From UHGV virus genome UHGV-0337628: DNA of 18,112 bases; one strand, written 5' to 3'. Below are positions 12,850 to 15,135 of this stretch, in pieces. The position numbers were made by a program, and so were the translations under genes. Under the pieces are notes generated by a model, which was not told the origin of the DNA, did no database searches, and saw nothing but the letters and a program-made list of their open reading frames with translations. The number at the start of each line of letters is the position of its first letter. Positions within the stretch are counted from its first letter, which is position 1. Source of the DNA: a virus.

Positions 12850-13137
12850 CTACTTCTTCAGAAATGATTCGATGAACTCACGCCGGGGATGACGATAGTT
12901 CAGAATATCTTCTGGCATCCTCATAAAGCGGTTGTTGCCGTCTTTGGCAGTAACGAAACAGCTGTGAACTCCGCAGACATCCGTTTTGATCGTGTCGCCA
13001 TACTCAAAAAGCAACTGCGCCATCTTCTCTTGCCATTCTTGCGGCATAGCCTCCATGAATACTCTCGGCATCACGCAGAACGACGCATGCGTCAGGCCAA
13101 ACCACAATTGCAGGTCTTTACGATATTCTTCATCCAT
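12850..13137 (-). CDS. hypothetical protein, 95 aa
   Basis: Internal ATG at 13137 preceded by AAAGG 8 nt upstream and by a terminator hairpin; product MDEEYRKDLQLWFGLTHASFCVMPRVFMEAMPQEW... The track's 13257 start is a TTG and would read through the hairpin. Family not recognised. Confidence 0.5.
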   Translation of the reverse strand: MDEEYRKDLQLWFGLTHASFCVMPRVFMEAMPQEWQEKMAQLLFEYGDTIKTDVCGVHSCFVTAKDGNNRFMRMPEDILNYRHPRREFIESFLKK

Positions 13138-13152
13138 CGTCTTTACCTTTGT

Positions 13153-13181
13153 TGCAATAAAAAGCCCCGCGAATGCGAGGC
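13153..13181 (-). terminator. intrinsic terminator-like hairpin downstream of Rz, immediately upstream of the 95-aa ORF
   Basis: Minus strand GCCUCGC-AUUC-GCGGGGC (7-bp G/C-rich stem, one G-U pair, 4-nt loop) followed by UUUUUAUUG. Confidence 0.55.
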
Positions 13182-13356
13182 TAAATCCTGGTATTTGTAA
13201 TGATCTGGCTCTTATCTCAACGCAACCCCTTACTGCGCGCCAGATGCTCAATATCAAGCATCAGCAATGAGATGTTTAATCTGGATTCACTCCAGAAGCG
13301 ATCACCACCCTGTCTACAGAGCCAGATGTGAAGGATGATGAGTAAAATTATCGCTA

Positions 13357-13824
13357 TCATCGAAGGCATTGCGTCCTGATGTATTCCTGAAGCGTTCTCA
13401 GTGCTGTTTGGTCGCGGATAATTCTGTCCCGGATACCGAGAACGTTTCGTCCAGCAACTGGAGAGAGTTCGACGGTGGCATCATTGCCCATGCCGGAGGC
13501 GCTGGAGGTTTCGTCTGAGGATGGCACAGGGCATTTTCCTTTGACGAGCACCCTGCCACCATTATCAAGCTTCCGCCGAAGAGCATCATTTTCAGCTTTC
13601 GCATCAGCTAACTCCTTCGTGTATTTAGCATCAAGTGCATCAGCATCACGCTGGCGCTGCTGCATGTCAGTAATGGTGGCGGTCGCCTGCTTCAGCTCAC
13701 TGACTTTTTTATCGCGCTGTTCTTTGTAGGTAATGGCGTTATCACGGTAATGATTAACAGCCCATGATAGGCAGACGATGATGCAGATAACCAGAGCGGA
13801 GATAATCGCGGTTACTCTGCTCAT
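13357..13824 (-). CDS. Rz: spanin inner-membrane subunit (i-spanin) Rz
   Basis: 155 aa; N-terminal transmembrane segment and first ~85 residues match my recollection of lambda Rz ([34 protein letters not shown]...[13 protein letters not shown]), then the C-terminal half diverges; start overlaps the R stop. Confidence 0.85.
13398..13604 (-). CDS. Rz1: spanin outer-membrane lipoprotein subunit (o-spanin) Rz1, embedded in the +1 frame of Rz
   Basis: ATG at 13604 with AAGGAG Shine-Dalgarno; product [23 protein letters not shown]... has a signal peptide and lipobox (VAGC) and a Pro-rich stretch, like lambda Rz1; entirely inside Rz. Confidence 0.7.
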
Positions 13825-14297
13825 ACCTCAATCTCTCTGACCGTTCCGCCAGCTTCTTTGAATTTTGCAATCAGGCTGTCAGCCTTATGCTCGAACTGAC
13901 CATAACCAGCGCCCGGCAGTGAAGCCCAGATATTGCTGCAACGGTCGATTGCCTGACGGATATCACCGCGATCAATCATCGGTAAAGCGCCGCGCTCTTT
14001 AATCTGCTGCAGTGCAACAGCGTCCTGGCTTTTGGGAGAGAAGTCTTTCAGGCCAAGCTGCTTACGATAGGCATCCCACCAACGGGAAAGAAGCTGGTAA
14101 CGTCCGGCTGCTGTTGATTTGAGTTTTGGGTTTAGCGTGACAAGTTTGCGAGGGTGATCGGAGTAATCAGTGAATAGCTCTCCGCCTACAATGACGTCAT
14201 AACCATGATTTCTGGTTTTCTGACGTTCGTTATCAGTTCCCTCTGACCACGCCAGCATATCGAGGAACGCCTTACGTTGATTATTGATTTCCACCAT
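13821..14297 (-). CDS. R: endolysin, lambda R-type lytic transglycosylase
   Basis: 158 aa; [23 protein letters not shown]...[23 protein letters not shown]... is essentially lambda R as I remember it; start overlaps the holin gene. Confidence 0.9.
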
Positions 14298-14604
14298 CTT
14301 CTACTCCGGCTTTTTTAGCAGCGAAGCGTTTGATAAGCGAACCAATCGAGTCAGTACCGATGTAGCCGATGAACACGCTCGTTATATAAGCGAGATTGCT
14401 ACTTAGTCCGGCGAAGTCGAGAAGGTCACGAATGAACCAGGCGATAATGGCGCACATCGTTGCGTCGATTACTGTTTTTGTAAACGCACCGCCATTATAT
14501 CTGCCGCGAAGGTACGCCATTGCAAACGCAAGGATTGCTCCGATGCCTTGTTCCTTTGCCGCGAGAATGGCGGCTAACAGGTCATGTTTTTCTGGCATCT
14601 TCAT
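14281..14604 (-). CDS. S: class I holin / antiholin, lambda S-type (S107/S105 dual start)
   Basis: 107 aa; [39 protein letters not shown]... matches lambda S; Met1-Lys2-Met3 dual-start motif (ATG at 14604 and 14598). Confidence 0.9.
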
Positions 14605-15135
14605 GTCTTACCCCCAATAAGGGGATTTGCTCTATTTAATTAGGAATAAGGTCGATTACTGATAGAACAAATCCAGGCTACTGTGTTTAGTAATCAGATT
14701 TGTTCGTGACCGATATGCACGGGCAAAACGGCATGAGGTTGTTAGCGCAACCTCCTGCCACCCGCTTTCACGAAGGTCATGTGTAGAAGGCCGCAGCATA
14801 ACTATCACTGATGAATTCAGGACAGCCAGTGGCTACGGCTCAGTTTGGGTTGTGGCGGTCGGTGCTGAACTCCGACTTAATGACGATAGGCGTGTACCGA
14901 CGCCTCGTTTTACTTCCTCCGCTTTCACGGCTTCACCCTAGACCAGCTTTACGAAATCCTCGTAAACCTAACCGCGGCAGATATGACCGGCACGGTGTGC
15001 CATATCACGGACCGGCGGGTGTCTCGTTCACCTGATTAACGCATCAGCCTGCGTATTCACCACAACGATAAGAGTACTGCGCGGCACCTTTCACCAATTC
15101 CGCGAGGTCTGCGGGTTCAATGCTCTTACCTGTTG
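14605..15135 (-). other. untranslated late-operon leader, lambda-type
   Basis: About 530 nt without a credible ORF between the candidate terminator and S; the minus-strand sequence (e.g. ...CACGAACAAATCTGATTACTAAACACAGTAGCCTGGATTTGTTCTATCAGTAATCGACC...) matches what I remember of the lambda region between tR-prime and S. Confidence 0.6.

Follow-up and report, generated by a model that had tools for sequence, protein, structure and literature searches.

A putative spanin gene pair in a P22-like phage segment, with an HK620-type Rz1 cassette behind a lambda-like 5′ block

The lysis region of the virus genome UHGV-0337628 contains an Rz gene that resembles the Rz gene of phage lambda in its first part and departs from it in the second, and a second reading frame, that of Rz1, lies inside the gene. 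A sequence-only reading of this locus had described Rz as a chimera. The question is what kind of gene pair the locus encodes and how its two unlike parts came to stand side by side. The answer that we consider very probable is that the pair is a functional two-component spanin belonging to an E. coli prophage of the P22-like (CUS-3/HK620-like) kind, in which an HK620-type cassette is placed on a lambda-like 5′ block. In this text the window means the whole stretch of 18,112 nucleotides that was analysed, and all positions refer to it.

Judged by its whole-window matches, the window belongs to a P22-like prophage or phage. Among the matches listed, the closest whole-genome relative is CUS-3 (77% coverage, 94.8% identity), followed by vB_EcoP-720R6, phiv205-1, Kapi1 and HK620. 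The genes S, R and Rz follow each other in the lambda order on the minus strand with overlapping stop and start codons, Rz being the last gene of the lysis cassette (Table 1). In the alignment with lambda (J02459), identity is 97-100% over S, R and the start of Rz, and the block homologous to lambda comprises about 250 bp 5′ of S, then S, R and codons 1-83 of Rz. The likeness extends to the S-R-Rz/Rz1 order, the start codon and the Shine-Dalgarno sequence of Rz1, the domain layout and the positions of the cysteines. The gene next downstream of the spanin pair looks truncated. The 50-aa ORF located 3′ of Rz was considered as a candidate fourth lysis gene: 96 of 98 copies are intact, but the coding signal is weak (p=0.036), with a similar signal in the +1 frame.

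Table 1. Positions of the genes and sequence elements discussed in the text
Feature	Position	Strand	Remarks
Holin S	14281-14604	minus	from ORF list
Endolysin R	13821-14297	minus	from ORF list
Lambda-homologous block	13577-14854	minus	96% identity; blastn against the lambda locus (L001) and sliding-window identity
Rz, putative inner-membrane spanin subunit	13357-13824	minus	155-aa ORF; PF03245, phrog_13
Polymorphic middle of Rz helix 1	13631-13725	minus	residues ~34-65; window variant marked by a 10-residue stretch
Conserved island	13578-13630	minus	53 nt; Rz residues ~65-83
Rz1 Shine-Dalgarno sequence (GGAG)	13612-13615	minus	7 nt 5′ of the ATG (13604-13602); read from the sequence
Rz1, putative outer-membrane lipoprotein spanin subunit	13398-13604	minus	68 aa, +1 frame inside Rz
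Variable cassette	13392-13595	minus	Rz1 plus Rz residues 77-144 (end of helix 1, linker, most of helix 2)
Rz tail and stop codon	13357-13391	minus	last 11 residues, including Cys153
50-aa ORF	13217-13369	minus	overlaps the Rz stop, lies mostly inside the downstream block; phrog_11822
Downstream block	13154-13356	minus	accompanies most HK620-type and some HK97-type alleles
Terminator-like hairpin	13182-13163	minus	within the downstream block

Both open reading frames were confirmed as they had been read, with an embedded Rz1 longer than the 60-aa Rz1 of lambda. The Rz product scores 105.5 bits against Pfam PF03245 (Phage_lysis; cut-off 25.4), its residues 29-153 matching profile positions 1-125 of 126, and matches phrog_13 with E=1.2e-75. 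Residues 4-23 form a transmembrane segment with a mean Kyte-Doolittle hydropathy of 2.71, which is identical to that of lambda. Lambda Rz has been mapped into a transmembrane domain (residues 1-24), the helical domain CC1 (27-87), the linker L2 (89-120) and a second helical domain, CC2 (121-150) (PMC5295617). A single-sequence AlphaFold2 model of the window protein (mean pLDDT 79) has one helix spanning residues 3-87, then a stretch or linker of low confidence (92-120) and helices between 122 and 154; this predicted architecture agrees with the lambda domain map. The periplasmic cysteines C98 and C153 align with C99 and C152 of lambda Rz, which are the homodimer-disulfide cysteines. By family score, topology, cysteines and position in the cassette, the protein appears to be a member of the lambda-family i-spanins.

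The earlier description of the C-terminal half as unrelated to lambda Rz did not hold. BLASTP aligned the two proteins over their full length with the cysteines in register, and the C-terminal half alone matched positions 64-125 of PF03245 (E=9e-10).

Rz1 begins at 0.47 and ends at 0.91 of the length of Rz. It scores 75.6 bits against Pfam PF06085 (cut-off 27.9), and its residues 1-67 match positions 1-68 of 68 of the phrog_3198 profile, which is annotated as 'Rz-like spanin'. The 18-residue signal peptide, followed by the cysteine, has a positively charged N-terminus and a hydrophobic core. The lipobox (VAGC, residues 16-19, with Cys19) is followed by Ser at position +2, a non-Asp residue as expected of a lipoprotein sorted to the outer membrane. 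The mature protein has 50 residues with seven prolines, a PPAPPAW motif, a single periplasmic cysteine (Cys27) and a core of 26 residues.

The protein is clearly homologous to lambda Rz1, though diverged from it. A proline-rich PPxPPAW motif is present in both proteins. The mature proteins are 33% identical in a global alignment (41 aa with ten prolines in lambda), whereas the full precursors are 45% identical in a local BLASTP alignment, which includes the shared first eight residues. These eight residues, MRKLKMML, are the majority form in the lambda-type alleles and are encoded 5′ of the junction described below. The signal peptide and lipobox had been taken as lambda-like; this is true of the first eight residues, but the remainder differs and the lipobox of lambda is VVGC. 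The extra length of the window protein is a C-terminal tail ending in 13 residues, the most variable part of Rz1 within its class. The extreme C-terminus of lambda Rz1 was reported to be dispensable (PMC5295617).

In agreement with the sequence-only reading, the Rz1 frame was undisrupted in relatives. It was intact and always 68 aa long in all 83 HK620-type loci, and intact and always 60 aa long in all 81 lambda-type loci, counts in which the window and the reference phages are included. We then looked at the polymorphisms of the HK620 class in the overlap. In the Rz1 frame 25 of 58 were synonymous (23% expected, p=7e-4), whereas the third frame, which served as control, had 10 of 58 and no such bias. 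The enrichment in the Rz frame was weak (20/58, with 26% expected; p=0.1). Purifying selection acts on Rz1, and Rz1 is a real gene.

These results bear on the possibility that the locus has no function, being part of a decaying prophage remnant or having a 68-aa Rz1 that is a chance ORF. The window is indeed prophage-like, the next gene downstream has a truncated appearance, and truncated Rz copies exist in some Shigella and E. coli genomes (loci L260-L266). However, both frames of the window are full length and score above the Pfam gathering thresholds, the lipobox, the cysteines and the proline-rich core are intact, the class-wide integrity of Rz1 is accompanied by purifying selection, and the allele is nearly the same as those of the plaque-forming phages HK620 and Kapi1. 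We regard loss of function as highly improbable.

The whole allele is 96-98% identical in DNA sequence to the Rz genes of Kapi1, phiv205-1, HK620, JEP4, SEN22 and SPN9CC. The HK620 allele itself is also found in Kapi1, mEp460, ST104, SPN9CC, SEN22 and Oslo. The Rz and Rz1 proteins of HK620 have the same lengths as those of the window (155 and 68 aa), and the Rz1 start, stop, lipobox and cysteines are equal; the C-terminal halves of Rz are 93% and the mature Rz1 proteins 96% identical. Mature Rz1 is likewise 96% identical to that of ST104 and 94% identical to that of JLK-2012. The window differs from its HK620-type relatives by point differences only. At Rz residue 133 it has Arg where most of these relatives have Gly, a change that is silent in Rz1, and at residue 103 it has Asp where most have Ala. 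Its variant of the middle segment (13725-13631) differs from that of HK620 itself. The records of HK620, Kapi1 and JLK-2012 do not list Rz1 in the HK620-type allele, and the HK620 record annotates Rz as 'similar to Rz protein of bacteriophage PS119'.

The extent of the divergent DNA was revealed most clearly by the comparison with CUS-3, which has an HK97/P22-type Rz (gp15)/Rz1 pair. CUS-3 and the window agree in S, R, roughly 30 codons at the beginning of Rz, the Rz tail and the Rz1 start codon. The two DNAs are 93-100% identical up to the end of R and for ~65 nt into Rz; identity then falls to 30-50% between ~13595 and ~13392, and returns to 97-100% from ~13390 on, through the last 11 codons of Rz and the downstream block. 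The segment 13595-13392 is thus replaced, and this two-sided replacement is almost exactly the Rz1 gene. The C-terminal halves of Rz are ~36% and the mature Rz1 proteins 28% identical; mature Rz1 of CUS-3 has 42 residues and no periplasmic cysteine, and helix 1 of its Rz has a deletion of seven codons relative to the window. The 97-100% identity over the tail (13357-13391) was found also with other HK97/P22-type alleles and not with lambda.

The same edges were seen in the other HK97-type loci. Most of the 80 loci of this type lose homology to the window at 13594-13595, and those that share the downstream block regain it at 13389-13392. In the class consensus sequences divergence sets in at Rz1 codons 2-4 for the HK97 class and at codon 9 for the lambda class, the HK620 and HK97 types reconverge 6-9 nt past the HK620-type Rz1 stop, and the GGAG together with the Rz1 start codon is common to all three allele classes.

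Class diversity was assessed in a panel of twelve phages. The panel replaced a protein search whose best 120 of 7993 matches all belonged to the same class (89-98% identity), so that it informs on abundance only, not on diversity. Downstream of Rz residue ~83 the panel falls into three discrete classes: the lambda type (lambda and the Stx1 phage), the HK620 type (the window, HK620, ST104, JLK-2012 and a Klebsiella phage) and the HK97/P22 type (CUS-3, P22, mEp235, phi80 and Stx2a_F349). The window carries a cassette of the HK620 class. Across the panel the identities of the C-terminal half of Rz and of Rz1 rise and fall together, and the identity of the N-terminal half is independent of them. 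The Klebsiella phage, for example, is 52% identical to the window in the N-terminal half of Rz, 76% in the C-terminal half and 78% in Rz1. The class pattern is descriptive and post hoc and comes from biased samples, and that its edges coincide with the Rz1 ORF was recognised only afterwards.

Cassette diversity is 0.2-5% within each class, and divergence between the classes is 40-60%, without intermediates. Natural hybrid cassettes were absent among 253 loci scored with three class-specific motifs, a result limited by sampling bias, since the 240 IMG/VR loci were picked as top matches to three full-length queries, a choice by which hybrids are under-represented. Two degenerate patterns that combined left and right parts found no hybrid in IMG/VR either, under the requirement of an exact motif match; a same-class control pattern matched at least 120 IMG/VR contigs.

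The 5′ surroundings of the cassettes were found to vary freely. Each class occurs behind several endolysin types and with several variants of the middle segment, near-identical cassettes (94-98% in DNA) stand behind unrelated endolysins and several middle-segment variants, and many HK620-type loci share nothing with the window 5′ of the Rz start codon.

Could the cassette have diverged in place, for instance under diversifying selection, with similar flanks being retained and no exchange of DNA? The coincidence of the divergent stretch with the doubly coding region would fit such local hyper-divergence, and the three classes are still recognisably homologous. However, the gap between within-class and between-class divergence has nothing in it, near-identical cassettes lie behind unrelated endolysins and N-terminal halves in phages of E. 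coli, Salmonella and Klebsiella, CUS-3 is 97-100% identical to the window on both flanks, and the histories of flank and cassette are incongruent. We consider divergence in place very unlikely. Because the same cassette is found behind varied endolysins and middle segments, reassortment by recombination is the preferred reading.

Against lambda the window has one junction. Rz residues 1-83 are identical at 73 positions (88%), in line with the initial observation that the protein follows lambda for about 85 residues, and residues 84-155 are ~36% identical. In DNA the identity by segment is 98.0% (13824-13726), 80.0% (13725-13631), 94.3% (13630-13578) and 49.3% (13577-13357), or 90.6% up to base 13580 followed by 49.3%. 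A maximum chi-square analysis placed the breakpoint between 13580 and 13579 (chi2 96.5), and none of 2000 permutations reached this value. A sharp breakpoint, as opposed to uniform divergence, had been set beforehand as a check on the chimera, and a sharp breakpoint was what we found. The lambda-type loci, collected from IMG/VR and GenBank with 1.5-kb flanks, gave the same position: in all 81 of them blastn homology to the window ends at 13577 (at 13580 in three). Between 71 HK620-type and 75 lambda-type genes there are no fixed differences in the first ~255 nt, and 3′ of this point there are 9-17 per 30 nt. Synonymous sites are also conserved 5′ of the junction. Gradual, uniform divergence from lambda Rz, with the breakpoint as an artefact of alignment or of a conserved anchor, could appeal to functional conservation of N-terminal membrane anchors and coiled coils, but it deserves practically no credence in view of the size of the step in the permutation analysis, the conserved synonymous sites and the change in fixed differences at ~13590.

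A second breakpoint inside the spanin genes had also been proposed. In the 81 lambda-type loci and their 1.5-kb flanks, homology to lambda does not return downstream of Rz. A two-breakpoint swap against lambda was therefore rejected, nothing 3′ of 13577 being lambda-like; the lambda Rz tail and the DNA downstream of it are unrelated to those of the window.

The N-terminal half of Rz is itself a mosaic, as the stretch of 80% identity to lambda at 13725-13631 indicates, and each cassette class is found together with several variants of this segment. It is followed by the conserved island, which has zero fixed differences between the HK620-type and lambda-type classes. The island encodes 20 residues of the distal part of CC1 and holds in addition the ribosome-binding site, the start codon and codons 1-8 of Rz1. 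It falls within the equivalent of lambda Rz residues 57-88, a segment which received ~62% of the lysis-defective missense changes (PMC5295617).

The term chimeric was justified in so far as the junction is of the recombination type. The label depends, however, on the phage chosen as reference: because the whole 155-aa allele is widespread, lambda could equally well be called the recombinant.

The proposal that Rz and Rz1 were exchanged as a pair needs a similar qualification. Rz1 is inherited in one piece with the C-terminal part of Rz, but this is forced by the layout and is not independent evidence of co-variation; because Rz1 lies inside the divergent DNA, separate inheritance of the two is impossible. 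The C-termini were also expected to co-vary. The identities of the Rz C-half and of Rz1 do move together, but the Rz tail is common to the HK620 and HK97 types, between which the identity of mature Rz1 (window against CUS-3) is the low value given above. The 11 residues of this tail align with lambda Rz 143-151, a stretch implicated by genetics in the contact with Rz1 (PMC5295617).

By analogy with lambda, Rz would be anchored in the inner membrane with type II topology, its two helical domains lying in the periplasm on either side of a flexible linker, and Rz1, made from the +1 frame of the same gene, would be a lipoprotein of the outer membrane. Both proteins would bind each other via their C-terminal regions and so span the periplasm, and after removal of the cell wall by the endolysin they would fuse the inner and outer membranes (PMC6139136, PMC5295617). 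We infer lysis activity of the window pair from this analogy.

The lambdoid Rz gene may be seen as a freely recombining 5′ scaffold, encoding the membrane anchor and the first helix, to which one old, discrete cassette is attached. At least three classes of this cassette exist (lambda-type, HK620-type and HK97/P22-type), and the variable stretch runs from just past the shared Rz1 start codon to a few nucleotides (6-9) past the Rz1 stop. In the window a lambda-like S-R-Rz 5′ block is joined to an HK620-type cassette at 13580/13579, and the join probably arose by homologous recombination in the conserved island with its ribosome-binding site and start codon for Rz1. Being constrained for both genes, the island would stay similar between classes and thereby offer a natural site for homologous crossover. 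Selection would act against crossovers inside the cassette.

The edges of the cassette could instead reflect constraint on Rz itself, because it is in the island that CC1 is sensitive to mutation, and the tail has a functionally important cysteine.

The gene pair, the allele class and lambdoid mosaicism are already established, and the allele of the window is an ordinary, catalogued one. Kongari et al. (2018) placed HK620, mEp460, SPN9CC and Oslo in the lambda i-spanin family, which has 83 members, and their Rz1 proteins in a separate 'HK620' o-spanin family of 14 members (PMC6139136). Other o-spanin families are those of lambda, with 28 members, and HK97, with 32 (PMC6139136). The criterion for a family was 40% identity or more across 40% or more of the periplasmic sequence. 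On this definition the window Rz1 belongs with the HK620 o-spanins (96% to mature Rz1 of HK620) and falls outside the lambda family, its 33% lying below the 40% threshold.

The cassette is also common in bacterial genomes. Of 5426 complete E. coli genomes, 1793 contain it, under the annotation 'lysis protein', and it occurs across the Enterobacterales in Citrobacter, Raoultella, Enterobacter, Pantoea, Erwinia, Edwardsiella and Pectobacterium. In the distant Enterobacterales relatives the 26-residue Rz1 core is nearly invariant, and the first 56 residues of Rz are 20-30% identical. With the cassette in about a third of the complete E. coli genomes, its value as a discovery is limited. The comparison is of use for annotation, Rz1 being often left unannotated.

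A search of the literature library used here found no paper that explicitly maps junctions inside Rz to the Rz1 ORF. What is mildly new is the existence of three discrete, non-hybridising cassette classes with boundaries that track the embedded Rz1 ORF. The C-terminal half of the i-spanin appears, from the sequences compared, to split into the same three classes as the o-spanin. According to the published view, i- and o-spanins follow independent evolutionary paths (PMC6139136); the three-class split would add a nuance to this statement on independent evolution of the subunits.

We see it as possible, somewhat short of probable, that the embedded o-spanin gene defines a discrete cassette in a recombining i-spanin gene, from which crossovers inside the cassette are removed by selection. 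The edges of the cassette lie within ~10 nt of the Rz1 start in the HK97 class, 25 nt inside Rz1 in the lambda class, and within ~10 nt of the Rz1 stop; crossing over would take place at the ribosome-binding site and start codon of Rz1 that all classes have in common. Exchanges inside the cassette would be selected against because the same bases encode helix 2 of Rz and Rz1, and these two are co-adapted. If this is true, cross-class Rz/Rz1 pairings and intra-cassette chimeras are predicted to be lysis-defective, and the published view of independent paths would have to be revised. Three non-hybridising classes on a common scaffold may be regarded as a natural experiment, which could tell which surfaces of Rz and Rz1 must match for membrane fusion.

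The half of Rz that the sequence-only reading had called lambda-like contains a second mosaic segment (residues ~34-65), which shares 80% identity with lambda. This segment occurs in at least four variants, one of them with a 7-codon deletion, and these assort with the classes of the variable Rz/Rz1 cassette. Codon 133 of Rz encodes Arg in the window (IRDRII); the remaining listed alleles of the HK620 type have Gly there (IRDGII). In the Rz1 frame this substitution is synonymous (ACA vs ACG). Arg likewise occupies the corresponding residue of lambda Rz.

Positions of features within and downstream of Rz
Feature	Position	Strand	Remark
Second mosaic segment of Rz	13631-13725	minus	
Rz codon 133	13426-13428	minus	
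50-aa ORF	13217-13369	minus	start 10 nt upstream of the Rz stop codon
Terminator-like hairpin	13163-13182	minus	AGCCTCGCATTCGCGGGGCT then TTTTATT
96-aa ORF	12850-13140	minus	phrog_3527 match

In four GenBank/RefSeq records, those of HK620 (L002), Kapi1 (L003), JLK-2012 (L171) and a Klebsiella phage (L172), Rz is annotated and the embedded Rz1 is omitted; the 68-aa Rz1 frame is intact in all four.

In one HK620-type IMG/VR locus (among L004-L083) Cys27 of Rz1 is replaced by Arg (…NALRHPQ…), and the sole periplasmic cysteine of Rz1 is thereby lost. In two loci from the control scan (L319, L364) the stretch of cassette that separates the class motifs is shorter by 9 nt. Four loci in the chromosomes of Shigella flexneri SFBU1023 and E. 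coli ECMA0423 (L260, L261, L265, L266) have truncated Rz frames of 96-140 aa and an Rz1 whose C-terminus is altered or which is no longer fully embedded in Rz; these are apparently prophage copies of the HK620-type cassette in the course of decay. HK620-type Rz1 (72-98% identity) was also encountered in eight genome contigs (L253, L254, L255, L257, L258, L278, L282, L284) labelled as Collinsella, Cellvibrionaceae, Segatella copri, Bacillota and Geobacteraceae MAGs and as a Chryseobacterium isolate assembly. They are probably contaminant or mis-binned contigs of enterobacterial phages.

The end of Rz is overlapped by a 50-aa ORF with a hydrophobic N-terminus, which matches phrog_11822 (labelled unknown function; E=2.7e-36). 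Its reading frame is intact in 96 of the 98 related loci, and it accompanies Rz alleles of the HK620 type and some of the HK97 type. The Kapi1 annotation has a version of 47 aa that includes a signal peptide. The synonymous-site coding test gave a weak signal (15/43 vs 22% expected, p=0.036). Directly 3′ of this ORF, within the late operon, stands the terminator-like hairpin; phi80 and mEp235 have annotated rho-independent terminators at the equivalent position after Rz.

The next downstream gene, the 96-aa ORF, occupies the place of a KilA-N domain gene in HK620 and ST104 and of a 203-aa gene in CUS-3. Its phrog_3527 match is confined to positions 138-230 of the 233-position profile, and the window ORF looks N-terminally truncated.
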